The translations under genes and the position numbers were made by a program. The notes below the pieces were generated by a model. The model did no database searches, was not told where the DNA came from, and saw nothing but the letters and a program-made list of their open reading frames with translations. Shown here piece after piece: positions 1-15,281 of a stretch of 56,184 nucleotides of DNA (its first letter is position 1; each line of letters begins with the position of its first letter). This DNA comes from an uncultured bacterium (GTDB lineage Bacteria; Zhuqueibacterota; QNDG01; CAYUAG01), in assembly GCA_964515295.1 (NCBI GenBank), contig CAZETW010000006.1, forward strand, positions 1 through 56,184, in the 5' to 3' direction.

Positions 1-110
1 CTGCATGCCCTTTTTGTCTTTTAACGCTGGAAGATGCAGTTAAAACAACTGGAAATGAGGACAAAATTGAAGTTAAGGATATTGCTGAGTTAATAGCTGA
101 GATGATGTGA
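1..110 (+). CDS. 3' end of a CCG-domain Fe-S oxidoreductase (HdrD/FadF/GlpC-like), partial
   Basis: Frame from base 3 reads ACPFCLLTLEDAVKTTGNEDKIEVKDIAELIAEMM*, the typical ACPxC...V.DI.EL end of a CCG domain. It lies directly upstream of etfB. Confidence 0.8.
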   Translation, partial: ACPFCLLTLEDAVKTTGNEDKIEVKDIAELIAEMM

Positions 111-165
111 ATGAATTGACAGTAAAAATAAATGATCAATTAATAAAATAAGAGGAGCATGATTT

Positions 166-954
166 ATGGATATTGTTGTATGTATAAAAAGAGTTCCTGA
201 TACTGCTGAGTCAGAAGTTAAGATTGACTCGACAGGTAAAGATATTGTAAAAGAGGGACTTGCTTTCAATATTAATGAAGCTGATAATTATGCCCTGGAA
301 GAAGCCCTTCTAATCAAAGAGGAAATGGGAGGTACAGTTACTCTGGTAACAATGGGTACTGAAAAAGCAGAAGAAACTATTAAGATGGGATTAGCTAAAG
401 GAGCGGATAAAGCAGTAAGGCTTGATGATCCTGCTTTTGCTGAATCGGATGGAGAAGTCACGGCCAGGATACTAGCATCAGCTATAAAGGATATGGAGTA
501 TGATCTGGTTTTGACCGGCTGTATTGCCACAGATAACTGGTATTCCCAGGTGGGACCTGCACTGGCAGAAATGTTAGGAATTCCTCATGCCAATATGGTA
601 ACCAAAGAGGAAATAAAGGATAAGAAAGTCCATGCTTTCCGTGAACTGGAGGGTGGTCTTTTAGAAAAACTGGAAATCGAACTTCCTGCAGTGCTCAGTA
701 TTCAGACTGGAATCAATGAACCACGGTATGCTTCTATAATGGGTATAGCTAAAGCCTCTAAGAAAGAAATTGAATTGAAAGGATTGAATGATCTTGGTTT
801 GCAGGAGGATAAAGTTGGGGTAAAAGGATCAAAAACATCAATTGAAAAACTTGAGCTTCCGGTACAGGAAAAGATGGCAGAATTGATCTCAGGGGCACCT
901 GAAGAAGCGGCAGAAAAATTATCCGGCATCCTGAAGGAAAGGGGGGTTGTATGA
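166..954 (+). CDS. etfB: Electron transfer flavoprotein beta subunit
   Basis: MDIVVCIKRVPDT start, NEADNYALEEAL, RELEGG and NEPRYAS motifs; GAGGAG RBS. Confidence 0.96.
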   Translation: MDIVVCIKRVPDTAESEVKIDSTGKDIVKEGLAFNINEADNYALEEALLIKEEMGGTVTLVTMGTEKAEETIKMGLAKGADKAVRLDDPAFAESDGEVTARILASAIKDMEYDLVLTGCIATDNWYSQVGPALAEMLGIPHANMVTKEEIKDKKVHAFRELEGGLLEKLEIELPAVLSIQTGINEPRYASIMGIAKASKKEIELKGLNDLGLQEDKVGVKGSKTSIEKLELPVQEKMAELISGAPEEAAEKLSGILKERGVV

Positions 955-1928
955 AAGAGATATTTGTACTGACAGAACACAGACAGGGGAAAATCCAGGA
1001 TGTTACGTTTGAGCTTTTATCCGGAGCAGCCGGATTTGCTGAAGAAAATGACGGAAGTGTTACTGCTGTTCTTTTAGGTTCCGGTGTAGATGCTTTTATA
1101 GATGAATTAAAAGGATGGACTCATAAAATTCTGGTTGTCGAAGATGATAAGTTAAAGGATTTCAATGCTGATGCTTACCAGAAAGTTCTATCATCTCTAA
1201 TTAAAGAATATAAACCTTACACAACCTTTATAGCTCAATCAGGTTTTGGTGTGGATGTAGCACCCAGCCTGGCAGTGGAATTAGATTATCCGCTTACAAC
1301 CGATTGTTATGATATTAGCATAGAGAATGGACAGCTTATAGGTTATCGTCAGATGTACGGGGGCAAAGTTAATGCAATGATCAGGATTGCAGATTCACCG
1401 GGAACCATTATAACTATACGTCCTGCATCCTTCAAACCGGAAAAAGGTGATTTTAAAACAGAGGTGGTAAAAGCTGACTCCCCGTTAAAGGAAGAAATTA
1501 CCTATCGTAAATTTTTAGAATATGTTGAAGCAGCGGTTGGTGAAGTTGATATTACCCAGGCAGATATTGTCATTGGAGTAGGAAGAGGGATAAAAGAAGA
1601 AGATAATATCCCTGTAGTTCAGGACCTTGCTGATACTCTGGGTGGCGTCCTTGCCTGTTCCCGTCCTATTGTGGATGCCGGATGGCTTCCCAAGGATCGT
1701 CAGGTGGGATCTTCAGGTAAAACAATAAAACCCAAACTCTATATTGCTTTGGGGATAAGCGGAGCATTTCAGCACGTCTCAGGCATAAAGAGTGCTGATA
1801 CAGTAGTAGCTGTTAACAAAGACTGCAACGCTCCTATTTTTGGGGTTGCAGATTACGGCATTGTTGATGATTTACTGAAAGTAGTTCCTGCATTAACTAA
1901 TAGATTCAAGGAATCAAAGGCAGATTAA
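951..1928 (+). CDS. etfA: Electron transfer flavoprotein alpha subunit
   Basis: SRPIVDAGW, QVGSSGKTIKPKLYIALGISGAFQH FAD-binding signature; ATGA overlap with etfB. Confidence 0.96.
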   Translation: MKEIFVLTEHRQGKIQDVTFELLSGAAGFAEENDGSVTAVLLGSGVDAFIDELKGWTHKILVVEDDKLKDFNADAYQKVLSSLIKEYKPYTTFIAQSGFGVDVAPSLAVELDYPLTTDCYDISIENGQLIGYRQMYGGKVNAMIRIADSPGTIITIRPASFKPEKGDFKTEVVKADSPLKEEITYRKFLEYVEAAVGEVDITQADIVIGVGRGIKEEDNIPVVQDLADTLGGVLACSRPIVDAGWLPKDRQVGSSGKTIKPKLYIALGISGAFQHVSGIKSADTVVAVNKDCNAPIFGVADYGIVDDLLKVVPALTNRFKESKAD

Positions 1929-1929
1929 T

Positions 1930-3885
1930 ATGGCAAAAATAGGTGTATATGTATGTCACTGCGGGATTAATATCGCTTCTACAGTGGATATTGAAAGAGT
2001 TGTAACAGCGGCTGAAAAGTATCATTCTGTAGCTGTAGCAAGAGATTATCCTTATATGTGTTCGGATCCTGGTCAGGAATTAATTAAAAAAGATATAAAA
2101 GAATATAAACTGGATCATGTTGTTATCGCAGCCTGTTCACCTCAAATGCATGAGTCCACTTTTAGAAAAACCTGTGAATCAGCCGGAGTGAATGCGTATT
2201 GTCTGGAAATTGCGAATATCAGAGAACAGTGTTCCTGGGTACATGATTCCAGAGAAGAGGCAACTGCTAAAGCTATTGACCTGGTGTTGAGTTCATTGTC
2301 CCGAGCGCAGCTTTTAAAACCTCTTGAAATTCAGGAAGTCCCGGTAACGAGATCTACTTTGGTAATAGGAGGCGGAATTGCCGGTATTCAGGCAGCACTG
2401 GATATTGCAGATGCAGGATTTAAAGTATATCTGGTGGAAAAGACTCCTTCTGTAGGCGGTCATATGGCACAGTTGGATAAAACTTTTCCCACTCTGGATT
2501 GTTCGGCTTGTATACTTACTCCTAAGATGGTGGATGTAGCAAATCATCCCAACATAGAGCTTCTGACCTATTCAGAAGTTGAAAAAGTAGAAGGATTTAT
2601 TGGAAACTACCAGGCAACAATAAAGAAGAAACCCAGATATGTCGATGTTGATAAATGTACCGGATGTGGTCTATGTGCAGAAAATTGTCGTTTGAAAGAT
2701 CGTATAGACAGTGAATTTGATGTGAATATGGGTAAACGTTCAGCAATTTATGTCCCATTTCCCCAGGCAGTTCCCTTAAAGTATACTGTTGATCCGGAAA
2801 ACTGTCTTTTTGTCACCAGAGGGAAATGCGGTAAATATCCTCCCTGTAAAGATATATGTGAAGCAGGTGCTATCGATTTTGACCAGAAGGAAGAATACAT
2901 TGATATTGACATTGGAACCATCATTGTGGCTACCGGATATGAAGTGTTTAATGCAGAGCGTAAACCAGAACTTGCCTATAAATACTATGAGAATGTTATT
3001 ACCGGATTAGAATTTGAAAGACTGGTATCTTCTTCCGGCCCAACTGAAGGAAATATTATCATTGGCGAAAAAGTACCAAAGAAAGTAGTGTTTATACAGT
3101 GTGTAGGTTCAAGGGATAAAAATCTGGGAAATGAATACTGTTCCAGAGTGTGCTGTATGTATGCTATTAAACAGGCGCATCTGATTAAAGAAAAGATTCC
3201 GGATGCTCAGGTAACAATTCTATATATGGATATCAGATGTTTTGGAAAAGGATATGAGGAATTTTATGATCGTGTTCGATCCGAAGGAGTTATTTTCCGG
3301 CGGGCGATTGGATCTGAAATTTATAAAAAAGGGGATGGATTAGCAGTTCGTACTGAGGATACATTTTTGGGAAAAACAGTTGAAGTGGAGGCAGATCTGG
3401 TGGTGCTGTCAGTTGGTATGGAGATTGGTGAAGGTTCTAAGCAAATTGCTGATTTACTAAAGCTTTCTATGTCAACAGACGACTTTCTTATGGAGGCCCA
3501 TCCGAAGTTAAGACCAGTAGATACTGCTACGGAAGGAATATTTCTGGCCGGCTGCTGTCAGGGTCCAAAAGATATTCCGGATACAGTTGCTCAGGCAAAA
3601 GCAGCAGCTGCTTCTGCAGTTATTCCCCTCAGTAAAGGAAAAGTTTTTATTGAACCTATTATAGCTACAACAAATCCGGATCTCTGTTCCGGCTGCCGAA
3701 TATGCGAATCAGTGTGTGAATATAAAGCACCGGAATATGATGAGGAGAATGAAGTTATACAAATAAATGCAGCTTTGTGTAAAGGATGCGGTTCTTGTGC
3801 AAGTGCTTGTCCCAGCAGTGCTATCACCATTCAGCATTTTACAGATGCACAGATTTTAGCTCAACTGCATTCACTTTCTGGATGA
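1930..3885 (+). CDS. hdrA: Heterodisulfide reductase subunit A-like flavo-iron-sulfur protein
   Basis: VYVCHCGINI, NIREQCSWVH, GGGIAG, DKTFPTLDCSAC, CVGSRD...CSRVCC, inserted and C-terminal ferredoxin motifs. Confidence 0.96.
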   Translation: MAKIGVYVCHCGINIASTVDIERVVTAAEKYHSVAVARDYPYMCSDPGQELIKKDIKEYKLDHVVIAACSPQMHESTFRKTCESAGVNAYCLEIANIREQCSWVHDSREEATAKAIDLVLSSLSRAQLLKPLEIQEVPVTRSTLVIGGGIAGIQAALDIADAGFKVYLVEKTPSVGGHMAQLDKTFPTLDCSACILTPKMVDVANHPNIELLTYSEVEKVEGFIGNYQATIKKKPRYVDVDKCTGCGLCAENCRLKDRIDSEFDVNMGKRSAIYVPFPQAVPLKYTVDPENCLFVTRGKCGKYPPCKDICEAGAIDFDQKEEYIDIDIGTIIVATGYEVFNAERKPELAYKYYENVITGLEFERLVSSSGPTEGNIIIGEKVPKKVVFIQCVGSRDKNLGNEYCSRVCCMYAIKQAHLIKEKIPDAQVTILYMDIRCFGKGYEEFYDRVRSEGVIFRRAIGSEIYKKGDGLAVRTEDTFLGKTVEVEADLVVLSVGMEIGEGSKQIADLLKLSMSTDDFLMEAHPKLRPVDTATEGIFLAGCCQGPKDIPDTVAQAKAAAASAVIPLSKGKVFIEPIIATTNPDLCSGCRICESVCEYKAPEYDEENEVIQINAALCKGCGSCASACPSSAITIQHFTDAQILAQLHSLSG

Positions 3886-3925
3886 ATATGATAAATTTTA
3901 TAAAATTTGATAAGATAAGAATTAA

Positions 3926-4387
3926 ATGGATAAAATTTTGAATAAGTCAATAAGTAATGATAATTGGAAACCGAAAATAATTGGCTTTGCATGCAACTGG
4001 TGTTGCTATGCAGGAGCTGATCTAGCAGGCACTTCCCGGATAAAATATCCTGCAAACATAAGAATAATACGATTGATGTGTACTGGCAGGATTGATCCCA
4101 CATTTATTCTTCAGGCATTTTTGGAAGGGATAGATGGTATATTTATCGGAGGATGCCATCCCGGTGATTGTCATTATCAGTCAGGTAACTATAAAGCCCT
4201 GAGGTGTATACAGCTAACCAGAAAAATGATACATCAATTAGGTGTTGATCCAGAACGTCTTCATCTGGAATGGATATCAGCTTCTGAAGGGAAGCTGTTT
4301 GCTGATGCAGTGTCAGTGTTCACGGATAAGGTTAAATCTTTAGGACCAAGTCCATTAAAAAAGAATAAGATGAATTATGTCAAATAA
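3926..4387 (+). CDS. mvhD: MvhD/FlpD [2Fe-2S] subunit
   Basis: CNWCCYAGADLAG, MCTGRID, GCHPGDCHY, WISASEG. Confidence 0.93.
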   Translation: MDKILNKSISNDNWKPKIIGFACNWCCYAGADLAGTSRIKYPANIRIIRLMCTGRIDPTFILQAFLEGIDGIFIGGCHPGDCHYQSGNYKALRCIQLTRKMIHQLGVDPERLHLEWISASEGKLFADAVSVFTDKVKSLGPSPLKKNKMNYVK

Positions 4388-4916
4388 ATCAGCAATAAAT
4401 AGAGGACAGGTTCAGGTATATACCGGAAAAGGCAAAGGAAAGACAACTGCTGCTTTAGGATTGGCTCTGCGGGCTTGCGGTCATAACTGGAAGGTACTGA
4501 TGATTTGTTTTATGAAAGGAGATCCTAATTATGGTGAGGTTATATTAGCAAGAAAAATCCCCAATTTCACCATAGTACAATCAGGATTACCTACTTTTGT
4601 TAAAAAAGGAGCCCCTTCAGAAGAAGATCTTCGGCTGGCCCGTGAAGGATTTCAGATGGCAGAAAAAGCGATCCAACAGAAAAAATATGACATGATCATT
4701 CTGGATGAAATTAATGTAGCTGTAGATTACGATTTACTGACATTAAAGGAATTACTTGAGTTGATAGACAAAAAACCTGCGGATGTGGAGCTTGTATTAA
4801 CCGGACGCTCTGCCCATCCTGAAATAGTAAAAAGAGCTAATCTTGTCAGTGAAGTACTGGAAATAAAACATTATTATACAAAAGGGATTGATGGCAGAGA
4901 AGGCATTGAATATTAA
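4377..4916 (+). CDS. cobO: Cob(I)alamin adenosyltransferase (CobO/BtuR type)
   Basis: YTGKGKGKTTAALG P-loop, ILDEINVA, VLTGR, HYY..G...REGIEY. Confidence 0.93.
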   Translation: MSNKSAINRGQVQVYTGKGKGKTTAALGLALRACGHNWKVLMICFMKGDPNYGEVILARKIPNFTIVQSGLPTFVKKGAPSEEDLRLAREGFQMAEKAIQQKKYDMIILDEINVAVDYDLLTLKELLELIDKKPADVELVLTGRSAHPEIVKRANLVSEVLEIKHYYTKGIDGREGIEY

Positions 4917-5862
4917 TAACTTATTAAAAAAATTCAATTCCGGAGACCGTTCGGCATGTGCGCGAATAATTTCAAAAATGGAAAATGAATCTTCTGATTC
5001 ATCTGATCTTTTTAATGCAGTGTATCATAAAGTAGGGAATGCCCACCGAATAGGTATTACTGGTCCTCCCGGAGCCGGAAAAAGTACATTAGTTGAGAAA
5101 CTCACACTTCAAATAAGAAAAAATGGGAATACTGTAGCAATAGTTGCGGTGGATCCTTCTTCCCCTTTCAGCGGTGGAGCAATTCTGGGAGACAGAATTC
5201 GGATGTCAAAGTTGTTTTTAGATCCGGGAGTATTTATTCGAAGTATGGCTACCAGGGGAAGTTTGGGGGGGATTTCTTCCAAAACCAGGGCAGTATGTGA
5301 TCTTCTGGATGCATTTGGAAAAGATATAATTATAATTGAGACTGTAGGAGTAGGGCAGGCGGAATTAGATATAGTGAAAGCCGCTCATACAACGATTGTC
5401 TGCTTGGTTCCGGAATCAGGTGATGGTATCCAGGCCATGAAAGCCGGTCTGATGGAAATAGGTGATCTGTTTGTGGTTAACAAAGCTGACCGTGATGGTG
5501 CAGATCAGTTATATACAGAAATTGAGACGATACTTGATATGCTTCTGGATACTAATAAATGGCGTCCCCAAGTTTTTCAAACTATAGCAAAAGATGATAA
5601 GGGAATAGACAGTCTGATTAACGGAGTGAATGAACATTTTCAATATATAAAAGATCATGATCTGTTGATCAGTTATAAAGAGGAAAACATAAGATCCGGT
5701 GTTATTCAGGAATTACAGGGCAGATTTTCAGATTCGTTATATACTAATTCAAATATTAAAGCTTTATTTCGTAAAAATATCAAACAGGTCTGTGAGGGAA
5801 AAATGACTCCTGGAGAAGTAGTGGATAAGATGTGGCATATTTTATATAAAAAAGAATTGTAA
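4891..5862 (+). CDS. meaB: Acyl-CoA mutase-associated GTPase MeaB/ArgK
   Basis: GPPGAGKST, DPSSPFSGGAILGDRIRM, ETVGVGQ, NKAD. Confidence 0.95.
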   Translation: MAEKALNINNLLKKFNSGDRSACARIISKMENESSDSSDLFNAVYHKVGNAHRIGITGPPGAGKSTLVEKLTLQIRKNGNTVAIVAVDPSSPFSGGAILGDRIRMSKLFLDPGVFIRSMATRGSLGGISSKTRAVCDLLDAFGKDIIIIETVGVGQAELDIVKAAHTTIVCLVPESGDGIQAMKAGLMEIGDLFVVNKADRDGADQLYTEIETILDMLLDTNKWRPQVFQTIAKDDKGIDSLINGVNEHFQYIKDHDLLISYKEENIRSGVIQELQGRFSDSLYTNSNIKALFRKNIKQVCEGKMTPGEVVDKMWHILYKKEL

Positions 5863-5887
5863 AATTTGCAATAAAAGGTAATGAGAC

Positions 5888-7543
5888 ATGTCAAAAAACA
5901 TAAAATCGGAAAAAAATAAATGGCAAAAAAAGTTTGAATCCTGTCAAAAAAGGGATATTAGTTTTAATACCGTATCAGGTGAACAGATCGAACCATTGTA
6001 TACACCTGAAGATTTACAGGATTTTGATTATACCGAGGATCTTGGTTTTCCAGGTGAATACCCATTTACCCGGGGAGTATATGACTCCATGTACCGGGGA
6101 AGACTCTGGACTATGCGGATGTTCTCCGGTTTCGGCAGTGCTGAAGACACTAATAAACGCTACCATTATCTTTTAGAACACGGACAGACCGGTCTTTCCG
6201 TTGCTTTTGATTTTCCTACATTATATGGAAGAGATTCAGATGATCCCTTTTCCTGCGGGGAAGTAGGTAAATGCGGAGTAGCCATTTCATCTCTGGCTGA
6301 TATGGAACGGCTGTTTTCCGGTATTCCCTTGGATAAAGTATCCACCTCGATGACCATAAATGGTCCGGCTGCAATTCTCTGGGCATTTTATATTGCAACA
6401 GCTGAAAAACAGGGAGTAGCATCAGAAAAATTACGGGGAACTATTCAGAATGATGTTCTCAAAGAATATATTGCTCAGAAATCCTGGTTAATACCTCCTG
6501 AACCATCAATGCGTCTTACAGTGGATACTATGGAATACGGTTCCAGACATGTACCAAAATGGAATACTATATCAATCTCCGGATATCATATCAGAGAAGC
6601 AGGTTCTACTGCAGTTCAGGAACTGGCATTTACTCTGGCAGATGGATTTGCTTATGTTGATGCTGGCATACAGTCAGGACTGGATGTAGACAGTTTTGCT
6701 CCCCGTTTATCTTTTTTCTTTAACTCCCATATTGATTTTTTTGAAGAGATAGCTAAATACCGGGCAGCCCGGCGTATCTGGGCCAGAGAAATGAAAAATA
6801 AATATGGTGCAAAGAATAAGCGATCTCTGCTCATGAGGTTCCATACTCAGACTGCGGGATGTACATTAACTGCCCAGCAGCCTGAGAATAACATAGTACG
6901 GGTAGCCTGGCAGGCTCTGGCTGCAGTGTTGGGTGGAACTCAGAGTCTGCATACTAATTCCATGGATGAAACATTGGCTCTTCCTTCGGAAAAAGCAGTT
7001 CTCATAGCACTCAGAACCCAGCAGCTTATAGCTCATGAATCCGGTGCGGTAAATACCATAGATCCTCTGGCAGGATCATATTTTGTAGAATCACTGACGA
7101 ACAAGATGGAAGAAAAAGCATATGAATATTTTGATAAAATTAAGAATTTAGGAGGAATCATTAAAGCAGTTGAAATAGGATATCCTCAAAAAGAAATTGC
7201 TAAAGCTGCCTATCAATATCAGAAAGAAATCGAAGAAAAAAAGCGCATTATTGTGGGGTTAAATGAATATAAAATGAAGAATGAAAAAATTGAGATACCT
7301 ATACTTGAAATTGACCCCCAGGTAGAAAATAATCAACATAAACGATTGGAGAAATTACGTAAAAAACGTGATAATCAAAAAGTAAAGCAAACACTGAATG
7401 ATCTCAGAGATGCCTGTAATGGAACAGATAATCTCATGTATCCCATAATGGAAGCAACCAGAGCGTACGCTACACTGGGAGAGATAGCAGGAGTATTAAA
7501 AGAAGAATTTGGAGAATACAGAGAACCTCCCACATATTGGTAG
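5888..7543 (+). CDS. B12-dependent acyl-CoA mutase large subunit, isobutyryl-CoA mutase-type active site
   Basis: MCM family motifs ([38 protein letters not shown]). It has Phe79 and Gln197 where methylmalonyl-CoA mutases have Tyr and Arg. Confidence 0.9.
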
Positions 7544-7563
7544 AATTTATTTAGAGGTGTTTA

Positions 7564-7965
7564 ATGGAAAGAAAAATTAAAATTTTATTAGGTAAACCAG
7601 GCCTGGATGGTCATGACCGAGGAGTAAAGGTTATTGCTCGTGCTTTACGGGATGCTGGTATGGAGGTTATATATACAGGTCTTCATCAGTCACCGGAAAT
7701 GATTGTTGAAGCTGCTGTTCAGGAAGATGTTGATGCTGTCGGACTTTCGATACTTTCCGGTGCTCATATGACCTTATTTCAAAAAGTTAAAGAATTGATG
7801 AAAAAAAACGGAATTGAAGATACGTTGCTCTTTGGTGGTGGTATTATCCCGGATAATGACATTAAAAAACTCAATAAGATCGGGGTTGGACGGATCTTTA
7901 CCCCCGGAGTTTTGACTGAAGAAATTATTACCTATATCAAAGACAATATAAAAACAGATGATTAA
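7564..7965 (+). CDS. Acyl-CoA mutase cobalamin-binding small subunit
   Basis: GLDGHDRG (DxHxxG), SILSGAH, GGGIIP. Confidence 0.95.
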
Positions 7966-9115
7966 AAGAAAGAAAATTTACAATATATCAGATATTCAGA
8001 CTCACGTTCGGGAAACAGCCAGAGATTTTGGTGAAAAAGAAATTTTACCTTATCTGCAAATGTATAATGGTTATTCTCCTGAATTTCCTCTTGACTTATA
8101 TAAAAAGATGGTAGAGCAAGGTTTTATCGGATATACTACTCCTGAAAGTTTAGGAGGCAATGCAAAAACCTGGATTGAATATGCCACTCTCATAGAAGAA
8201 ATTTCTTATTTTGATGCTTCAATCGGATTTATTATTTCCATAGGAAATCTGGCTTTATTGCCTATTGAATTCTTTGGAAATGAGGATCAGAAAAAGCTTT
8301 TTATAAAGAAAATGATACAGGGAAAAATGATCGGTGCTTTTGCTCTTACTGAACCTCAGGCTGGTTCTGATGCTGCTAATATTCAGACTAAGGCGGTATT
8401 TAAAAGCGATAAATATATTCTTAACGGAGAGAAACTTTTTATTTCCAGCGGTGATGTAGCTGATATAATTGTGTTGATTTGTCAGATCAAAAAAGGTTCG
8501 GAAAAAGGCTTGGGAGTTCTTCTGGTAGAAACTGAATCTCTTAAAGGATTAAACAGAGAAAAATTAAAAGATAAAATGGGATTACGAGGTTCTACTACAG
8601 CCAGACTGCATTTTAAAAACTGTCAGATACCGGAAGAATCATTATTGGGCACAATAGGTAACGGTTTTAAGATTGCTATGAAATCACTTGATTATTCCCG
8701 GGTAGCCGTTGCAGCTCAGGCAGTGGGACTGGCACAGGCATGCTTTGACAGATCAGTGCATTATGCAAAAAAAAGGGAGGTTTTCGGAAAACCTCTTTCC
8801 AGGCTTCCGGCAATTCAAAATATGATTGCAGACATGTCCTGCAGACTTGAAGCAGCCAGATTAATGACCTATAAAGCTGCTTTATTAATGGATGAAAATC
8901 TCTCTTTTACAGAAGAATCAGCTCAGGCCAAGTTATATAGTTCAGAATGTGTGAATTACATAGCTGATAAGGCAGTTCAGATCCAGGGAGGATACGGATA
9001 TGTAGGTGAGTTATCAGATATTGAAAAACTATACAGAGATGCCCGGGTTATTCCAATCTATGAGGGCACTTCAGAGATTCAAAAAATGATCATTGCCAGA
9101 AATGAATTAAAATAG
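7958..9115 (+). CDS. Short/branched-chain acyl-CoA dehydrogenase
   Basis: [44 protein letters not shown] with the catalytic Glu. Confidence 0.93.
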
Positions 9116-9125
9116 GAGGTATAAG

Positions 9126-10190
9126 GTGGGAAAAGAAAATATCAAAGTAGGGATTGTGACATACGGTGCATATGTTCCGAAACACAGAATAAAAGTGGAA
9201 GAGATAGCCAAAGTCTGGGGTGCAGATGCAGAAAGTTATAAAAAAGGGTTAGAGTTAAGGGAAAAATCAGTCCCAGCTCCTGATGAAGATACTATAACAA
9301 TGTCTGTGGAAGCAACCAGAAATGCTTTGATGCGAAGTCCTGTAAATCCGTTGGATATTGGTGCTGTCTATATTGGTTCGGAATCACATCCCTATGCAGT
9401 TAAGCCGTCCGGTACCACTGTTGCAGAAGCGATCGGCGCTACTCCTGATATTCACTGTGCAGATTATGAATTTGCCTGTAAGGCAGGATCTGAAGCTATG
9501 TATGTAGCTCTGTCACTGGTAAAAGCAGGGGAGATGAAATATGCCCTGGCTATTGGGGGTGATACTTCCCAGGGAGCACCTGGAGATGCTTTAGAGTATT
9601 CTACTGCAGCAGGTGCCGCAGCTTTTATTATGGGATCAGACAATCTTATTGCGGAATGCGAATATACCCATTCTTTTATGACAGATACACCTGATTTCTG
9701 GAGAAGAGAATATCAGTATTATCCTCAGCATGCAGGACGTTTTACCGGCAAACCTGCTTATTTCAAGCATGTCCTCGGTTCTGCTGAAGCTATATTGAAA
9801 AAAAGCGGGATGAAACCGGATGATTTTACCTATGTGGTATTTCATCAGCCCAATGGAAAATTTCCTCAAAGAGCAGGGAAAATACTGGGATTCAGCAAAG
9901 AACAGATTGCTCCGGGATGGCTTGCACCTACTCTCGGGAATACATATTCCGGTTCTTCTCCTATGGGTTTAACGGCTGCCCTGGATGTATCAAAACCCGG
10001 TGATAAAATTCTTATGGTTTCTTACGGATCAGGTGCAGGGAGTGATTCTTTTATATGGGAAGTAACCGATAAGATCGATGAAGTACGGGATAAAACAGCA
10101 AAAACCAGGGAACAGTTAGAAAAGAATATACGCTATATTGATTATGGAATGTATGCAAAATTCAGGAAAAAGATCAGGAAGAATGTGTGA
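9126..10190 (+). CDS. Hydroxymethylglutaryl-CoA synthase, archaeal type
   Basis: GSESHPYAVKP, EFACKAG (catalytic Cys), FHQPNGKFP, GNTYSG, SYGSGAGSD; 354 aa; GTG start with AGGAGG RBS. Confidence 0.92.
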   Translation: MGKENIKVGIVTYGAYVPKHRIKVEEIAKVWGADAESYKKGLELREKSVPAPDEDTITMSVEATRNALMRSPVNPLDIGAVYIGSESHPYAVKPSGTTVAEAIGATPDIHCADYEFACKAGSEAMYVALSLVKAGEMKYALAIGGDTSQGAPGDALEYSTAAGAAAFIMGSDNLIAECEYTHSFMTDTPDFWRREYQYYPQHAGRFTGKPAYFKHVLGSAEAILKKSGMKPDDFTYVVFHQPNGKFPQRAGKILGFSKEQIAPGWLAPTLGNTYSGSSPMGLTAALDVSKPGDKILMVSYGSGAGSDSFIWEVTDKIDEVRDKTAKTREQLEKNIRYIDYGMYAKFRKKIRKNV

Positions 10191-10246
10191 TATATGTGTA
10201 TGAGAACGTAAGAACTTGGGAATTTTGACGTGTAGAAATTATAAAT

Positions 10247-10286
10247 GACCGCAGACGGCGGACAGCGGACCGCGCGGTCAGCGGTC
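10247..10286. repeat. Degenerate GACNGCR heptamer array with inverted arm
   Basis: gaccgca-gacggcg-gacagcg-gaccgc followed immediately by the inverted gcggtca-gcggtc. Confidence 0.75.
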
Positions 10287-10354
10287 TCTTTAATAAATGT
10301 AATTATGCTATATGAATATGAACAAATTTTTGATTGTCAAACTAATAAGGGGAG

Positions 10355-10693
10355 ATGCTCATGGACTTTCCGGATTTAATAACTGGATTACCGCAAGCAG
10401 ATATTCCTTTTAAAGGGGTGAGGGGATGGATTCTGCAGGGTGATGATCAGCAGATAGTTTTTATGGATATTGCCCCTATTGGTAAAGTTGATGAACATAC
10501 TCACAGTGCTCAATTTGGAGTATTGCTGGATGGAGAAATGTCATTGACAGTAAATGGAAAAACCACTAGACATAAAAAAGGAGACAGTTATTTTATTCCG
10601 GAGCACGTACCGCATTCTGCAGTTTTTCATACTCAGGTGAAAGTTATGGATATGTTTAATGAAAAAGAAAGATATAAGGTAAAGCTGACATAA
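10355..10693 (+). CDS. Cupin domain protein
   Basis: EHTHSAQFGVLLDGEM and GDSYFIPEHVPH cupin motifs. Confidence 0.85.
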   Translation: MLMDFPDLITGLPQADIPFKGVRGWILQGDDQQIVFMDIAPIGKVDEHTHSAQFGVLLDGEMSLTVNGKTTRHKKGDSYFIPEHVPHSAVFHTQVKVMDMFNEKERYKVKLT

Positions 10694-10718
10694 AGTAAGA
10701 ATGTGATAGCTTTAGAAG

Positions 10719-10770
10719 TCACCATAGACCGCAGACCGCGGACGGCAGACAGCTAATTGGTTTTCGGTCT
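10719..10770. repeat. Second GACNGCR heptamer array
   Basis: gaccgca-gaccgcg-gacggca-gacagct ... cggtct, the same unit as at 10247. Confidence 0.7.
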
Positions 10771-10813
10771 GGAATAAATATTTTATTAGTGATTTGATAA
10801 ACAAAAGGAAAAA

Positions 10814-13273
10814 ATGAAAAGAAAACAGTTACTCTTTAGTTTATTATTATTAATTATCGTCAGTAATATAGTTTATTCACAGAATGATGGATTTAAACTG
10901 ACTCCACTGACTGTTCAGAAAATCATGCGTAATCCGGATGAGTGGATAGGAGTTTCACCGTCGCGGATTCATTTCTCCGAGGACGGGTCAAAAGTTTATT
11001 TTTACTGGAATCCAGAAAAAGCAGAAAGTGATTCCCTGTACTATGTTCCCAGTAGCGGTGGAACTCCACAAAAAGTATCGTATTCCCAAAGAAGGTCTCT
11101 TCCTTCACAGAACGGTGATTATAATCAGGAACGTATCAAAAAAGTATATTCACGGAACGGTGATTTATTTGTTTTAAATATTAAAAATGGTAAAGAAGAG
11201 CAGCTCACCAATACACTTGAAACTGAACACAATCCAAAATTTACTGGAGATGGGAAAAAAATTGTATTTCAAAAAGATAATGATCTCTATATACTGTATC
11301 TGTCTACCGGAAAATTAGAACAGCTTACGAATTTTCAAAAGCAATCCGGCAGAGATGTTTCAGATGAATTCAAACACGTTCAGTCTGAACAGGATACCTG
11401 GCGCAGCAGGGAAGCATTAAACCTCAGCAGAATCCTGAGTAAGCGAAAAAGAAAACAGGAGGTATCTAAAAAAAATCAAAAAGCAGAAATACCGGAACGG
11501 CCTCAGAGAATCATCATTGGTAACAAGAGAGGCATCGGACTTCAGCTTACTCCTGATGAACGGTTTGTTATATTCAGTTTGATGAATCTTCCGAATAATA
11601 TAAAGCGGACCAAAGTTCCTCAATACGTTACTGAATCTGGATATATCGAAGAGCTGACATCCCGTTCAAAAGTCGGCACTCCTTATGGCTGGGTAGAACT
11701 TGGGATATATGATTGTGAACAGGATAGTGTTTATTATGTTTCTGATGAACAAATCCCGGGAATATATGATCAGCCACCTTATTTAGAAGAGTATACAAAT
11801 AAGAAAAAAGATCAAAACAAAAATAAAAGGTCCGAAGAACCTGAGAAAAAGAGAAAAATTGTTTCAGAGAATGATAAGAAAAGTGCCCGGAAAGTATCAT
11901 ATTCCTTACCTGTTTGGTCTGAGGATGGGAAATATGCTGCTGTAGAGATCCATGCTTCAGATAATAAAGATCGATGGATTATGCAGCTGATCACTGAGAC
12001 AGGTGAACTTAGGCTTCTTGACCGGCAGCACGATGAGGCCTGGATCGGTGGACCCGGGATTCGTAGCTGGTATGGCAGAAATCAAATTGGCTGGATGCCA
12101 AATAACCGGCATCTCTGGTTTCACTCAGAAGAATCGGGATATTGCCATCTTTATACTGTGGATGTGATCACCGGGGAGAAAAAGGCATTGACCAGTGGTG
12201 AATTTGAAATTTATTCTCCTCAGATGTCACACAATGAAAAATACTGGTATTTTACTGCAAATAAAGAACATCCAGGTGTACGTCATTTTTATAGAATGCC
12301 GATTAAGGGCGGAGAAATGGTCAGAATAACCAGTATGACCGGTAATAATGATGTAACACTGTCTCCGGATGAAGAAATATTGGCTGTCCGTTATTCCCGC
12401 TCGAATCGTCCCTGGGAACTGTATATTATGGAAAATAAACCAGGAGCAGAAGCTGAAAAAATTACTTCATCTCTCAGTCAGGAGTTTTTATCCTATTCCT
12501 GGCATAAACCTGATATTATTACGTTTTTTGCCAGAGACGGGTCAGATGTATATGCAAGGTTATATCGCCCTGAAAGTCCAGAACCTTATGGACCTGCAGT
12601 GATATTTGTACACGGAGCTGGTTATATGCAGAATGCACATAAATGGTGGTCAAGTTATTTCAGAGAGTATATGTTTCATAATCTACTGACAGAGCACGGA
12701 TATACTGTTCTGGACATCGATTATCGGGGCAGCGCAGGTTATGGAAGGGATTGGCGTACTGCCATTTACCGGCATATGGGAGGTAAAGATCTTACTGATC
12801 AGGTTGACGGAGTAAAATTTTTGATCAAAAACTATGATATGGATCCAGAACGCATCGGAATATACGGCGGTTCATACGGAGGGTTCATTACTCTGATGGC
12901 AATGTTCACTGTTCCGGATATATTTAAGGCAGGAGCAGCCTTGCGTGCAGTTACTGACTGGGCGCACTATAATCATTCCTATACCAGTAATATTCTTAAT
13001 ACTCCTGTACCGGACAGCCTTGCCTATAAACGCAGCTCTCCGATTTATTTTGTAGAAGGACTAAAAGGATCACTGCTCATGGGTCACGGAATGCTCGACA
13101 GGAATGTTCAGTTTCAGGATATTGTTCGGCTCACTCAGCGGCTGATTGAACTGGGCAAGGAAAACTGGGAACTGGCCGTATATCCATTGGAAGGGCATTC
13201 GTTTCAAGAGCCTTCCAGTTGGACCGATGAATACAGACGTATTTTTAAACTGTTTGAAGATAATTTAAAATAG
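10814..13273 (+). CDS. Secreted S9 family (DPP IV/prolyl oligopeptidase-like) peptidase
   Basis: Signal peptide, beta-propeller region, GGSYGG nucleophile, LDRNV Asp and EGHSF His. Confidence 0.92.
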   Translation: MKRKQLLFSLLLLIIVSNIVYSQNDGFKLTPLTVQKIMRNPDEWIGVSPSRIHFSEDGSKVYFYWNPEKAESDSLYYVPSSGGTPQKVSYSQRRSLPSQNGDYNQERIKKVYSRNGDLFVLNIKNGKEEQLTNTLETEHNPKFTGDGKKIVFQKDNDLYILYLSTGKLEQLTNFQKQSGRDVSDEFKHVQSEQDTWRSREALNLSRILSKRKRKQEVSKKNQKAEIPERPQRIIIGNKRGIGLQLTPDERFVIFSLMNLPNNIKRTKVPQYVTESGYIEELTSRSKVGTPYGWVELGIYDCEQDSVYYVSDEQIPGIYDQPPYLEEYTNKKKDQNKNKRSEEPEKKRKIVSENDKKSARKVSYSLPVWSEDGKYAAVEIHASDNKDRWIMQLITETGELRLLDRQHDEAWIGGPGIRSWYGRNQIGWMPNNRHLWFHSEESGYCHLYTVDVITGEKKALTSGEFEIYSPQMSHNEKYWYFTANKEHPGVRHFYRMPIKGGEMVRITSMTGNNDVTLSPDEEILAVRYSRSNRPWELYIMENKPGAEAEKITSSLSQEFLSYSWHKPDIITFFARDGSDVYARLYRPESPEPYGPAVIFVHGAGYMQNAHKWWSSYFREYMFHNLLTEHGYTVLDIDYRGSAGYGRDWRTAIYRHMGGKDLTDQVDGVKFLIKNYDMDPERIGIYGGSYGGFITLMAMFTVPDIFKAGAALRAVTDWAHYNHSYTSNILNTPVPDSLAYKRSSPIYFVEGLKGSLLMGHGMLDRNVQFQDIVRLTQRLIELGKENWELAVYPLEGHSFQEPSSWTDEYRRIFKLFEDNLK

Positions 13274-13299
13274 ATTATTAATAAAAATTTTGAGGAGGT

Positions 13300-14457
13300 A
13301 TGATGAGAGAAGTTGCTGTTGTAGGTGTAGGGATGCAGAAATGGGGTGAAGTATGGGAAAAATCCTTGCATGAATTATTTGTAGAAGCTGCCCTTACAGC
13401 GATTAAAGATGCAGGAGTGGATCATATTGATTCTATGTATGTTGGCTGTATGTCCAGCGGGCTGTTCAACGGTCAGGAACATATTGGATCTTTGCTGGCA
13501 GATTTTCTTGGAGCAGCTCCCATTCCTTCAACCCGGATAGAATCAGCCTGTGCTTCAGGCGGTGTAGCATTTCGCACCGGGTTTATCGAAGTTGCATCCG
13601 GAATGAGCGATATTGTTCTGGCCGGCGGAGTTGAAAAAATGACTGATGTAGGTGGAGATGAAGCCACCTATGCTCTGGGAACTGCTGCTTTTCAGGATTA
13701 TGAAGGATTTAACGGCACTACGTTTCCTGGTATTTATGCTATGATAGCACACAGACATATGCACCAGTTCGGAACTACTCCGGAACAGCTGGCCCAGGTT
13801 GCTGTTAAAAATCATAGAAATGGTTCCATGAATCCTTTAGCACAGTACCCCATGAAAATTACAGTAGATCAGGTGTTGAATTCAGTAATGATTGCTGATC
13901 CACTCCATATACTGGACTGTTCTCCCATAACTGACGGAGCTGCTGCTGTAATTTTATGTCCGGTAGAAATGGCAAAAAAACTGGGAAAACCAATTATCAA
14001 AATAATAGGATCCGGACAAGCTACAGATACTATAGCTCTGCATGACAGAGAGGACATTACTTTTTTAAATTCTACTGCAAAAGCTGCTGAAATTGCTTAT
14101 AAAATGGCTGATAAAACTCCGGAAGATATTGATATTGCCGAAGTACATGACTGCTTCACAATAGCAGAAATCTGCATAACAGAGGCATTAGGATTCTGTG
14201 AGAGAGGTAAAGGTGGTGAATTTGTTGAAAGCGGTAAAACTGACATAGGAGGTCAAATACCCATAAATACCAGTGGAGGTCTGAAATCTAAGGGTCATCC
14301 GGTAGGAGCCAGCGGTATAGCGCAGGTTATAGAAATAGTTCATCAGTTGAGGCAAGAAGTTGATAAACGTCAGGTAGATGGCGCAAAAATCGGATTAACT
14401 CAGAATATGGGCGGCAGCGGAGGCAGTGCAGTTGTACATATTTTGGAGGGAGAATAA
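13300..14457 (+). CDS. Acetyl-CoA acetyltransferase (archaeal/SCP2-type thiolase)
   Basis: [36 protein letters not shown]. Confidence 0.92.
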
Positions 14458-14458
14458 A

Positions 14459-14848
14459 ATGATAGCACCAAGAATTCATCGGGCAATGCCCCAGCGATAC
14501 AGATATCAGGCAAATAAGTGTATGAAATGTGATAAAATATTTTTTCCGCCGCGTCAAGTCTGTCCGGGGTGTAAATCCGAAGATCTTGAGCCTGTAACTT
14601 TGAACAGACAAGGGAAACTATTATCCTATACCATAATCAGAGTACCCCCAAGTCAGTTTAAAGATGAGGCCCCCTATGCTGTGGGAATCGTAGAATTAGA
14701 AGGAGGGGGTCGTATAACAGCTCAGATCGCTGACTGTGATTTCGATGATTTAGAAATTGATATGCCGGTGAGAATGGAATTCAGACGAATTCAGGAAGAA
14801 GGAGAAGCAGGGGTCATATGTTACGGATATAAGTGTGTACCGGTTTGA
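14459..14848 (+). CDS. DUF35 Zn-ribbon/OB-fold protein
   Basis: CMKC...PPRQVCPGC plus OB-fold (PYAVGIVEL). ATG at 14459 follows the thiolase stop with a GGAG RBS. Confidence 0.92.
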   Translation: MIAPRIHRAMPQRYRYQANKCMKCDKIFFPPRQVCPGCKSEDLEPVTLNRQGKLLSYTIIRVPPSQFKDEAPYAVGIVELEGGGRITAQIADCDFDDLEIDMPVRMEFRRIQEEGEAGVICYGYKCVPV

Positions 14849-14956
14849 GAGATTATTATACTATTTTAAGTCCGTGATAACTTTTTTTAATATTCATTGA
14901 GTGTAACAAGATAAGAAAGTACCCACGAAAGACACGAAACACACTAAATATTTTTA

Positions 14957-15271
14957 TTGAATTTTATCGGAGAAAAAGGGTATTTATTTCTCTCAGAATA
15001 TGAATTCCATCTGGATTCCGGTGTATGGACGCATATACATCAAAAGAAAGTTGGAGATGAATTTTCTCTGGATAATGCTTTGAATACCTATCAGGAAGAT
15101 TTAAGTAATGCTCTTTTGGAAGCAATACGAAAACGTCTGTACAAGACTTACGTCGATGAGGCCTACAGGTTAACAGATATACTTGAGAAAGAAAAAACTC
15201 CTCAAGTAAAAAAATTAAACCGGGAATTAAGTGAATTGCAGTATTTTTCAGTTGTTAATGTTAAAGAGTGA
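14957..15271 (+). pseudogene. Probable C-terminal remnant of a class V aminotransferase-like protein
   Basis: FIGEKGYLFLSEYEFHLDSGVWTH resembles, from memory, the C-terminal tail of long class-V PLP enzymes. TTG start, no RBS. Confidence 0.5.
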
Positions 15272-15281
15272 AATATCAGTA

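Follow-up and report, generated by a model that had tools for sequence, protein, structure and literature searches.

We describe here a block of same-strand genes at positions 1-14848 of a 56,184-nucleotide stretch of bacterial DNA (the window), in which an acyl-CoA mutase, an electron-transferring flavoprotein (ETF) followed by HdrA- and MvhD-type redox proteins, and an archaeal-type 3-hydroxy-3-methylglutaryl-CoA (HMG-CoA) synthase (HMGCS) are encoded next to one another, and discuss its possible participation in the oxidation of short acyl-CoAs. The window makes up all of contig C6 in a metagenome-assembled genome of 3.15 Mb, 93.85% complete, which is coded G000 hereafter.

A 23-gene supercluster

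Gene calls in the window are based on a listing of open reading frames (ORFs) combined with Pfam and NCBIfam profile searches. On the plus strand, an open-ended ORF (3-110) encodes the last 35 residues of a CCG-domain protein, the C-terminus of the soluble HdrD-like protein described below. It is followed by etfB (166-954; PF01012, 140 bits) and etfA (951-1928; PF00766 and PF01012), encoding the ETF beta subunit and a 325-residue alpha subunit devoid of an N-terminal ferredoxin domain; by hdrA (1930-3885), encoding a putative HdrA-type FAD/Fe-S flavoprotein with Fer4 and Pyr_redox_2 domains (881 bits against the HdrA2-like profile NF040770, cut-off 1100); and by mvhD (3926-4387; PF02662, 178 bits), encoding an MvhD/FlpD-type [2Fe-2S] adaptor. 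The mutase genes come next: a CobA/CobO-type ATP:cob(I)alamin adenosyltransferase gene (cobA, 4377-4916; PF02572, 206 bits; TIGR00708, 166.4 bits for a cut-off of 167.75), meaB, for the G-protein chaperone of B12 mutases (4888-5862; TIGR00750, 328 bits, above cut-off), icmA, for the large subunit of the mutase (5888-7543; PF01642, 759 bits; TIGR00641, 791 bits), and icmB, for its B12-binding small subunit (7564-7965; TIGR00640, 160 bits, above cut-off). A short-chain acyl-CoA dehydrogenase (ACAD) gene called with Pfam (7958-9115) overlaps icmB by 8 nt and precedes the archaeal-type HMGCS gene (9126-10190; TIGR00748, 533 bits, above cut-off). Beyond it lie genes for a small cupin of 112 residues (10355-10693; PF07883), an S9 prolyl-oligopeptidase-family peptidase of 819 residues also called with Pfam (10814-13273), an archaeal-type acetoacetyl-CoA thiolase (ACAT; 13300-14457; NF053570, 568 bits for a cut-off of 600; PRK06064, 557 bits, above cut-off) and a DUF35 scaffold protein with a zinc ribbon and an OB fold (14426-14848; PF01796 and PF12172). 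Intergenic distances from the CCG tail through HMGCS range from -29 to +55 bp; the gap between HMGCS and the cupin gene is 164 bp and that between the cupin and peptidase genes 120 bp. The original prediction, made from the letters of the window, had these genes co-oriented and overlapping or within about 60 bp of each other up to HMGCS, with the thiolase and DUF35 genes following on the same strand, and this description holds; it did not mention the cupin and peptidase genes that separate HMGCS from the thiolase gene. Elsewhere, the window encodes a TonB-dependent receptor, a type IX secretion system (T9SS)-tailed protein, a sigma-54 activator, SurA, MutL and MiaA, from which it follows that the host is a bacterium and not an archaeon.

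The block extends upstream of the window. Contig C70, in reverse complement, overlaps window bases 1-55 exactly, and its first 1073 bases, read in reverse, code for the first 357 residues of the CCG protein; in two sequencing runs, a 7.86-kb contig spans window positions 1-100 and reaches about 7.76 kb further upstream. C70 carries, on the same strand and in this order, genes for phosphate butyryltransferase (ptb), biotin carboxylase (BC), biotin carboxyl carrier protein (BCCP), a short-chain enoyl-CoA hydratase (crotonase), 3-hydroxyacyl-CoA dehydrogenase, an SCP2-type thiolase and two ACADs resembling butyryl-CoA dehydrogenase (Bcd), and the same upstream order recurs in the related genomes G002, G003, G008 and G009. 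Given the C70 join and its recurrence in relatives, window positions 1-14848 are the downstream part of a one-strand supercluster in which 23 genes span about 26 kb and the genes just listed are followed by those for the HdrD-like CCG protein, etfB, etfA, hdrA, mvhD, cobA, meaB, icmA, icmB, the third ACAD of the supercluster, HMGCS, the cupin, the S9 peptidase, ACAT and DUF35. The peptidase sits between cupin and thiolase in G000 and is missing from that position in its congeners G002 and G003 and is, for this reason, regarded as an insertion in G000, where at least nine more S9 paralogs were found. The cupin is found in G001 (a third congener), G002, G003, G024 and G026, that is, in only part of the relatives.

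A GC-rich heptamer-type repeat (GCGGTCT/GCGGTCA units) is scattered through the AT-rich genome of G000, one 10-mer of it being present in 77 copies. Copies at window positions 10240-10285 and 10720-10770 flank the cupin gene, and another (C70 9616-9947) lies in the gap between ptb and the BC gene, where G002 and G003 hold a gene similar to liuC; such repeats may mark sites of deletion or insertion. Consensus scans of window positions 1-15400 returned 42 promoter-like sites (45.6 +/- 6.5 in shuffled sequences) and 14 terminator-like sites (10.7 +/- 3.2), counts that are uninformative on transcription units and compatible with internal starts.

An isobutyryl-CoA mutase paralog

In alignments to 1REQ, 5REQ and 4R3U, the window mutase carries Phe79 at the position of Tyr89 of methylmalonyl-CoA mutase (a column fixed by the Y89F mutant entry 5REQ) and Gln197 at that of Arg207, and displays an Ala where the 2-hydroxyisobutyryl-CoA mutase 4R3U carries an Asp. 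The presence of Phe and Gln in place of the substrate carboxylate-binding Tyr89 and Arg207 is what we take to be the signature of isobutyryl-CoA mutase (ICM). When 34 mutase loci of related genomes and of further phyla were compared, they split cleanly by paralog into 17 Phe/Gln and 17 Tyr/Arg loci, and the split follows identity to the window protein, the former being at least 60% identical to it (16 of the 17 at 66% or more) and the latter 47-62%. These residues make the window mutase the ICM paralog, with a predicted isomerase activity. Methylmalonyl-CoA mutase was not found in G000. Together with a MeaB scoring above its profile cut-off, the Phe/Gln pair agrees with the branched-chain acyl-CoA mutase and chaperone that had been proposed for this locus. 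The large and B12-binding small subunits are encoded separately, and the adenosyltransferase and MeaB genes lie in the same cluster; a cobA-meaB-icmAB cluster has been described in the syntrophic isobutyrate degrader Syntrophothermus lipocalidus (Slip_0757-0760) (PMC5017805). In G008 (contig C4; L133 9086-12649), a Tyr/Arg mutase of the methylmalonyl-CoA type and a second BC/BCCP pair are located within the upstream block, suggestive of a propionyl-CoA branch in that genome.

Conservation and co-loss among relatives

Linkage was followed in the 31 species genomes of G000's order present in the collection, G000 included. The order of the block is kept, as far as contigs reach, in nine other genomes belonging to three families. 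Phe/Gln ICM is found in 11 of the 31 genomes (in G030 as fragments only) and HMGCS in ten, all of them ICM carriers; none of the 20 genomes devoid of ICM has HMGCS. In G009, G025 and G026, icmB directly adjoins HMGCS. The congener G001 has retained on contig C44 (L144 1-12200) a minimal block, ptb-ACAD-CCG-etfBA-hdrA-mvhD-cobA-cupin, and lacks meaB-icmAB-ACAD-HMGCS, ACAT-DUF35 and the beta-oxidation genes; both gaps flank the retained cupin gene. The cobA gene of G001 is orphaned, no mutase accompanying it. Genomes of the same phylum carry meaB-icmAB alone. The gene-neighborhood survey that had been suggested as a check on the original prediction has thus found the redox, mutase and HMGCS blocks syntenic in nine other genomes of three families, and the mutase and HMGCS genes lost together in G001; the blocks are not unlinked in these relatives, which would have refuted the prediction, and we regard it as highly likely that the block forms one functional unit.

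A soluble HdrD-like/HdrA/MvhD module next to ETF

The full CCG protein is 375 residues long and consists of a Fer4 dicluster domain and of PF02754 CCG domains in two stretches (96-98 bits). Its cysteine motifs, two of the ferredoxin type, and its two CCG domains are invariant in five orthologs, and among NCBIfam profiles it matches TfrB best (162 bits, which is below the cut-off). No membrane domain was found in the 375 residues, the length being filled by the Fer4 and two CCG domains; a hydropathy scan returned one 19-residue window above 1.6, inside the second CCG domain. The hdrA product covers positions 1-640 of NF040770 and the mvhD product matches positions 641-774 of this fused HdrA2 profile. 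ETF is single-copy in G000. The nearest solved relative of EtfB is the non-bifurcating, AMP-type ETF beta subunit of M. methylotrophus (1O94_C, 161 bits; 115-142 bits for bifurcating types), and EtfA matches equally well the bifurcating CarE (218.2 bits) and the M. methylotrophus alpha subunit (1O94_D, 217.9 bits). EtfB reads DNWY where FixA and CarD in printed alignments read DGDT, a difference which we take to be a marker of ETF type. The best solved relatives of the window ACAD are the short-chain ACAD 1JQI (303 bits) and Bcd (5OL2_C, 288 bits), with isovaleryl-CoA dehydrogenases at 217-234 bits and isobutyryl-CoA dehydrogenase at 200 bits; for both ACADs encoded upstream, the nearest match is the Bcd found in bifurcating complexes (5OL2_C, with 422 and 445 bits).

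The string CCG-etfB-etfA-hdrA-mvhD is contiguous in all six loci that span CCG to mvhD: G000 (by way of the C70 join), G001, G002, G008 (where CCG and etfB are separated by one extra gene), G009 and G026, in which hdrA is interrupted. The two pieces of the G026 gene lie 2.7 kb apart (C35; L146 1506-6485). ETF of the cluster type (at least 57% identity) is found in 11 of the 31 genomes. A search for the ETF-linked HdrA in five genomes outside the order yielded a single 62%-identical match, on a short contig, the other matches being paralogs of at most 51% identity. Several HdrA paralogs of other phyla (G041-G045) contain one in-frame TGA each, in line with what selenocysteine-containing HdrA would show.

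The rest of the G000 genome offers potential partners for such a module, in the form of several 2-oxoacid:ferredoxin oxidoreductase sets and of a [NiFe] hydrogenase whose gene adjoins a second HdrCBA-MvhD locus. At that locus (C17, 15.7-41 kb; L129, L130 and L139), one strand carries genes for the [NiFe] hydrogenase large subunit, an acetate-kinase-family protein, a HEAT-repeat protein, hdrC-hdrB-hdrA-mvhD and an FAD/Fe-S pair, and continues with two 2-oxoacid:ferredoxin oxidoreductase sets, succinyl-CoA synthetase, a thioesterase, an FAD-linked oxidase and more MvhD- and HdrA-like genes.

According to a preprint on class II benzoyl-CoA reductase (10.64898/2026.04.10.717634), the HdrD-like BamD binds a non-bifurcating ETF close to its non-cubane clusters, with electron transfer measured, and this ETF takes the high-potential electrons of the HdrA-type BamE, the MvhD-like BamF being the adaptor. 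A comparable coupling of ETF to the HdrD-like protein and HdrA in the block described here is, in our view, slightly favored. The ETF-HdrA-MvhD module first proposed is made of real genes that stay contiguous in six loci; its routing of electrons is a prediction from sequence.

The HMG-CoA synthase trio and its neighborhoods

The best solved relatives of all three proteins are chains of the archaeal complex 6ESQ: 6ESQ_I for HMGCS (449 bits), 6ESQ_A for the thiolase (399.5 bits) and 6ESQ_E for DUF35 (121 bits). The Glu-Cys-His-Asn tetrad of HMGCS is intact, the segments GSESHPY, EFACKAG, FHQPNGKF and GNTYSG being conserved relative to 6ESQ_I, and the thiolase keeps the CxS, GHx and HDxF motifs (ACASG, KGHP and VHDCF) of 6ESQ_A. 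According to a recent study (PMC12960953), this tetrad and these three motifs separate true HMG-CoA-forming complexes from repurposed bacterial acylases. The trio is single-copy in G000, where the DUF35 gene adjoins the thiolase gene and HMGCS lies 3.1 kb upstream; in G018, HMGCS is directly adjacent. The window HMGCS is 73-77% identical to Zixibacteria and Ignavibacteria copies and 59-60% identical to same-phylum copies.

A search for HMG-CoA reductase versus HMG-CoA lyase, which had been put forward alongside the original prediction, gave the following results: HMG-CoA reductase (PF00368) was found in none of the 31 genomes, G000 included, and the HMGL-like family PF00682, which comprises the lyase and LeuA, was not found in G000, G009, G024 and G026. 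G000 has dxr, encoding 1-deoxy-D-xylulose 5-phosphate reductoisomerase, and yielded no match to PF01144, the family-I CoA-transferase family of AibA/B. The trio is probably tied to the HMG-CoA/methylglutaconyl-CoA node of metabolism rather than to mevalonate.

Genes suggestive of a leucine branch accompany it. The parts of a methylcrotonyl-CoA carboxylase are present in G000, with BC and BCCP on C70 and a carboxyltransferase (CT) on C2 that is 86% identical to the CT found beside the LiuC-like gene of G027; the substrate assignment of the carboxylase is predicted. The best NCBIfam match of the LiuC-like crotonase is gamma-carboxygeranoyl-CoA hydratase, a sister of methylglutaconyl-CoA hydratase (263 bits, cut-off 426). 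This hydratase occurs in ten of the 31 genomes, namely nine of the ten HMGCS carriers (all but G000) and G030, and was not found in G001. In G027 the order reads ACAD-HMGCS-biotin ligase-ThiE-ACAT-DUF35-(T9SS protein)-CT-LiuC-like-BC-BCCP. The biotin-protein ligase and thiamine-phosphate synthase (ThiE) genes inserted there between HMGCS and ACAT (C7; L147 10835-12376) provide, with cobA and meaB, cofactor-maturation genes for all three cofactor-dependent steps.

Beyond the order, the window HMGCS has more than 585 bacterial relatives, the best 80 loci of which (65-84% identical) were examined; their records are titled Zixibacteria, Ignavibacteria, Aminicenantes/Acidobacteriota, Eisenbacteria, Planctomycetota, Calditrichota and others. 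In these 80 loci, thiolase is next in 74 and DUF35 in 72; 43 of the 80 have CT, 41 the LiuC-like gene, 34 BC and 21 BCCP. Fifty other-phylum loci extend at least 5 kb past DUF35: CT or the LiuC-like gene lies within 6 kb in 34, both on the same strand in 29, and neither in 16. Neither lyase nor reductase families were found among the 31 ORFs flanking six such loci, and one of five other-phylum genomes with the seven-gene operon (record titled chromosome) has neither reductase nor HMGL-like family. ICM and ETF-Hdr beside the trio are almost confined to G000's order: Phe/Gln ICM lies near HMGCS in three of the 80 loci (L046 and L047 of this order, the latter by icmB only, and L065) and cluster-type ETF in one. 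A second, independent adjacency of trio and Hdr genes is seen in a locus whose record is titled Calditrichota (L057, 3523-5900), where HMGCS-thiolase-DUF35 is directly followed by hdrA and mvhD genes 48% and 44% identical to those of the window.

Proposed pathway and alternatives

From the gene content, specificity residues, catalytic motifs, synteny, co-occurrence and co-loss laid out above, we infer a direction of flux, a reverse operation of HMGCS and a confurcating role of the Hdr module. There is an even chance, in our estimation, that the block serves the complete anaerobic oxidation of amino acid-derived short acyl-CoAs to acetyl-CoA; sequence alone cannot set the direction of flux, and the catabolic direction is the one that we consider the more probable. 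Valine- and leucine-derived acyl-CoAs formed by 2-oxoacid:ferredoxin oxidoreductases would be oxidized further instead of being excreted as isobutyrate and isovalerate. On the valine branch, the adenosyltransferase and MeaB encoded with ICM would load it with cofactor, and the mutase would convert isobutyryl-CoA to butyryl-CoA, which ACAD, crotonase, 3-hydroxyacyl-CoA dehydrogenase and thiolase would then split to two acetyl-CoA. On the leucine branch, an ACAD would yield 3-methylcrotonyl-CoA, to be carboxylated by BC, BCCP and the unlinked CT, and the LiuC-like hydratase (in relatives) would form HMG-CoA. The HMGCS/ACAT/DUF35 complex would finally replace HMG-CoA lyase and turn HMG-CoA and two CoA into three acetyl-CoA, the endergonic retro-condensation being drawn forward by the exergonic thiolysis by way of the shared CoA site. 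It is the absence of a lyase, which leaves the HMGCS complex as the only HMG-CoA-handling enzyme in these genomes, that leads to the cleavage direction; we propose this reverse use of HMGCS tentatively.

ACAD electrons are too high in potential to yield H2 or NADH. They would pass from the ACADs to the single ETF and on to the soluble HdrD-like protein, and HdrA would merge these high-potential electrons with the low-potential electrons of reduced ferredoxin; MvhD would then hand the electrons on to a partner of intermediate potential, for instance an Mvh-like [NiFe] hydrogenase. The stoichiometry fits, in that each 2-oxoacid would supply one reduced ferredoxin pair and each ACAD step one ETF pair, and ptb and a kinase would harvest ATP. 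By our own bookkeeping, a lyase route would bring no more ATP than the excretion of isovalerate, and a thioester-conserving split one more. That a lyase-free HMG-CoA splitter and a quinone- and membrane-free confurcating ETF:HdrD-like/HdrA/MvhD complex cooperate in one operon is a doubtful proposition as it stands; if both roles are true, a fermenting or syntrophic FCB (Fibrobacterota-Chlorobiota-Bacteroidota)-type bacterium equipped with ICM would obtain from valine and leucine about double the substrate-level ATP that excretion of isobutyrate and isovalerate allows. The pathway from isobutyryl-CoA to butyryl- and crotonyl-CoA through ETF-HdrA, with a link to HMG-CoA, that had been read from the window stands as regards the ICM residues, the ACAD, ETF, HdrA and MvhD genes and the linkage of the blocks; it needs amending in that the cluster is larger and the HMGCS link points to the leucine/isovalerate branch.

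A number of observations weigh against this oxidative scheme. Three of the ten carriers (G009, G025 and G026) have no ACAD gene separating icmB from HMGCS, and all three ACADs of the supercluster are butyryl-CoA/short-chain-like, none being nearest to isovaleryl- or isobutyryl-CoA dehydrogenase. To judge by bit scores, EtfB is nearest a non-bifurcating ETF while EtfA ties with the bifurcating CarE. In G000 the CT is unlinked, on contig C2, and neither a LiuC-like gene nor any crotonase other than a generic short-chain type was found, for which reason the leucine branch may be incomplete there. Among the five other-phylum genomes with the seven-gene operon, two have HMG-CoA reductase and three an HMGL-like match, one of them lyase-sized. 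The HMGCS reaction is usually regarded as an exergonic step of synthesis (PMC12960953), and a biochemical precedent for a cleavage-direction HMGCS complex was not found in the literature searched. The HMGCS gene of G009 (C54 556-1595) contains an in-frame TAG, which, like the split hdrA of G026, may reflect decay or insertions in the block. Complementarity of the cluster with canonical isoleucine, leucine and valine biosynthesis, a point separate from these objections, is suggestive and not clean: ketol-acid reductoisomerase (KARI, IlvC) is missing in six of the ten cluster carriers compared with five of the 21 other genomes of the order, kin not being independent, and four of the ten carriers keep both IlvC and LeuA-type genes, so that the pattern is not complementary. 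G000 itself has no KARI and no HMGL-like (LeuA) match, which suggests a branched-chain amino acid auxotroph and fits its many peptidases and its amino-acid permease (window 46658-48487).

These last data bear on the opposite direction of flux, in which ACAT and HMGCS would make HMG-CoA, a LiuC-like enzyme would dehydrate it, the biotin enzyme would decarboxylate the product, and ACAD, ETF and Hdr would reduce 3-methylcrotonyl-CoA to isovaleryl-CoA, with crotonyl-CoA being reduced in a parallel arm to butyryl-CoA for ICM to convert to isobutyryl-CoA; the products would prime iso-fatty acids or give leucine and valine by reductive carboxylation. HMGCS and ACAT keep all their synthetic-direction motifs, the distribution of KARI and the missing LeuA-type match in G000 point the same way, and Myxococcus xanthus, according to PMC5389471, makes isovaleryl-CoA from HMG-CoA via MvaS, LiuC, AibA/B and AibC. 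An HdrA module bifurcating toward ETF, as in class II benzoyl-CoA reductase (10.64898/2026.04.10.717634), would moreover suit the reduction of enoyl-CoA. Set against this are the ATP-grasp biotin carboxylase, which carboxylation requires and which 34 of the 80 HMGCS loci retain next to CT and the LiuC-like gene, the absence of an AibA/B-family match in G000, the four carriers with both IlvC and LeuA-type genes, a ptb gene, full beta-oxidation set and three ACADs that exceed the need for primer supply, and the abundance in G000 of peptidases along with an amino-acid permease. We consider such an anabolic role unlikely.

Equally unlikely, to our minds, is a more ordinary redox arrangement serving the same carbon pathway, in which an ACAD and ETF would form an NADH-dependent bifurcating complex of the Bcd/EtfAB type and HdrD-like/HdrA/MvhD a separate enzyme, for instance a thiol/disulfide or ferredoxin:NAD(P) module. 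The affinity of the two upstream ACADs to Bcd, the tie of EtfA with CarE and the presence in G000 of further Hdr/MvhD loci devoid of ETF would be in keeping with it. The AMP-type affinity of EtfB and its DNWY motif, whose meaning is presumed, the contiguity of CCG-etfB-etfA-hdrA-mvhD in six of six spanning loci, that of the otherwise reduced G001 included, and the docking of ETF on BamD shown experimentally for the homologous module (10.64898/2026.04.10.717634), argue against it.

A coincidental juxtaposition of independent ETF-Hdr, ICM and HMGCS operons with no shared function is improbable. It would explain why the trio mostly occurs without ICM or ETF in other phyla (3 and 1 of 80 loci), why same-phylum genomes have meaB-icmAB alone and why G001 keeps ETF-Hdr without the rest, and the promoter and terminator scans leave room for internal starts; it does not account for an order, strand and tight spacing kept across three families, for HMGCS being restricted to ICM carriers (10 of 10, compared with none of the 20 genomes without ICM), or for the deletions flanking a retained cupin gene in G001 and the direct icmB-HMGCS junction in three genomes. 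A role of the trio at the start of isoprenoid synthesis, as in archaea, was rejected for the order and is very improbable, for although its best matches are the archaeal complex with motifs intact, and HMG-CoA reductase is found in two of three same-phylum genomes with a 59-60%-identical HMGCS and in two of the five other-phylum genomes, the reductase is missing from all 31 genomes of the order, G000 has dxr, and HMGCS is an accessory (10 of 31) rather than a housekeeping gene.

Should the oxidative reading be correct, it would bear on a bottleneck of anaerobic carbon flow, the branched-chain fatty acids released by protein decay. Digester metatranscriptomes have credited their oxidation to three bacterial phyla only, under the assumption of a mutase and beta-oxidation for isobutyrate and of carboxylation, lyase and beta-oxidation for isovalerate (PMC7382037). 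The block places the capacity for branched-chain oxidation in another, uncultured lineage and would provide shortcuts at the energetically hardest points, in the form of a quinone-free route for acyl-CoA electrons and of a thioester-keeping cleavage of HMG-CoA. Reversibility of the HMGCS complex in vivo would mean that many annotations of bacterial genes as "mevalonate" genes are wrong, and the complex might then be used for engineering C5/C6 acyl-CoA chemistry. Natural variants lend themselves to comparison: G001 with the redox module only, G027 with the carboxylase downstream and G000 without the hydratase.

Comparison with known systems

A full-text search, which left most subscription journals uncovered, returned no paper on ICM, ETF-HdrA-MvhD and HMGCS in one cluster and none on an HMGCS trio replacing HMG-CoA lyase. 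The suggestion that the combination is undescribed is upheld to that extent, with the qualification that two of its parts are known, cobA-meaB-icmAB (PMC5017805) and, from a preprint, the docking of ETF on BamD (10.64898/2026.04.10.717634).

The closest parallel to the valine branch is found in Syntrophothermus lipocalidus and 'Ca. Caldisyntrophus' (PMC5017805), which share with the window a cluster of split mutase, adenosyltransferase and MeaB-like genes, isomerization to butyryl-CoA followed by beta-oxidation, and an ETF-dependent disposal of electrons. These syntrophs use a membrane ETF-linked Fe-S reductase, FixABCX and Flox-Hdr (PMC5017805), whereas in the block described here the mutase genes are joined on one strand to those of ETF, a soluble HdrD-like/HdrA/MvhD module, beta-oxidation enzymes and the HMGCS trio. 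The hosts differ as well, that of the window being an uncultured bacterium of the T9SS/TonB type and the syntrophs members of the Syntrophomonadaceae or Desulfobacterota.

The archaeal counterpart of the trio is the thiolase/HMGCS/DUF35 channeling complex of Methanothermococcus thermolithotrophicus, reportedly described by Voegeli et al. in 2018 (PDB 6ESQ/6ET9). Its chains are the best solved relatives of all three window proteins and the motifs are kept, and the formation of a three-protein complex is predicted by this likeness. Unlike the archaeon, the host here is a bacterium with a gene of the methylerythritol phosphate pathway and without HMG-CoA reductase, in which the trio is accessory and tied to ICM and ACADs and, in relatives and many phyla, to methylcrotonyl-CoA carboxylase and a LiuC-like hydratase. 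In G000, moreover, the cupin and peptidase genes split HMGCS from the thiolase.

With the BamDEF-ETF branch of Geobacter metallireducens (10.64898/2026.04.10.717634), the module shares an HdrD-like CCG protein, a putative HdrA-type protein, an MvhD-like protein and an ETF, here with a beta subunit nearest the non-bifurcating type, the ETF acting in Geobacter as high-potential partner docking on the HdrD-like subunit. The window, in contrast to that branch, has neither the tungsten-containing BamBC nor the NuoEFG-like BamGHI, its HdrA is single rather than a fused double, and its partners are ACADs. The oxidative reading further implies an opposite electron flow, from ETF to HdrA. The Bcd-EtfAB and Bcd-EtfAB-EMO systems of fermenters and syntrophic butyrate oxidizers (10.1101/2024.08.04.606487) likewise place short-chain ACADs next to etfBA, with a CCG Fe-S protein as the partner of ETF. 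Whereas Bcd-EtfAB-EMO is membrane-bound and quinone-linked, the 375-residue CCG protein encoded here has no membrane domain of its own and is followed by hdrA-mvhD rather than by a quinone link.

The liu route of leucine and isovalerate degradation (PMC7382037) has in common with the leucine branch an ACAD, BC and BCCP, CT and, in relatives, a crotonase resembling methylglutaconyl-CoA hydratase, and ends at HMG-CoA; G000, G009, G024 and G026 differ from it in having no lyase-family gene, and in its place the HMGCS/ACAT/DUF35 trio. The alternative isovaleryl-CoA biosynthesis of M. xanthus (PMC5389471) similarly links acetyl-CoA to a branched C5 acyl-CoA through HMGCS and a LiuC-type dehydratase. 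In G000, by contrast, the AibA/B family was not found and a biotin carboxylase set is present instead, HMGCS is of the archaeal three-protein type and not MvaS, and the direction is probably the opposite. The family to which each part belongs is thus known, publications cover the icm cassette and a general scheme by which branched-chain fatty acids are oxidized (PMC5017805, PMC7382037), and the ETF-BamD contact has been reported in a preprint; what is specific here is the joining of ICM, beta-oxidation, the redox module and a lyase-free HMGCS trio in one co-inherited block of which natural deletion variants exist.

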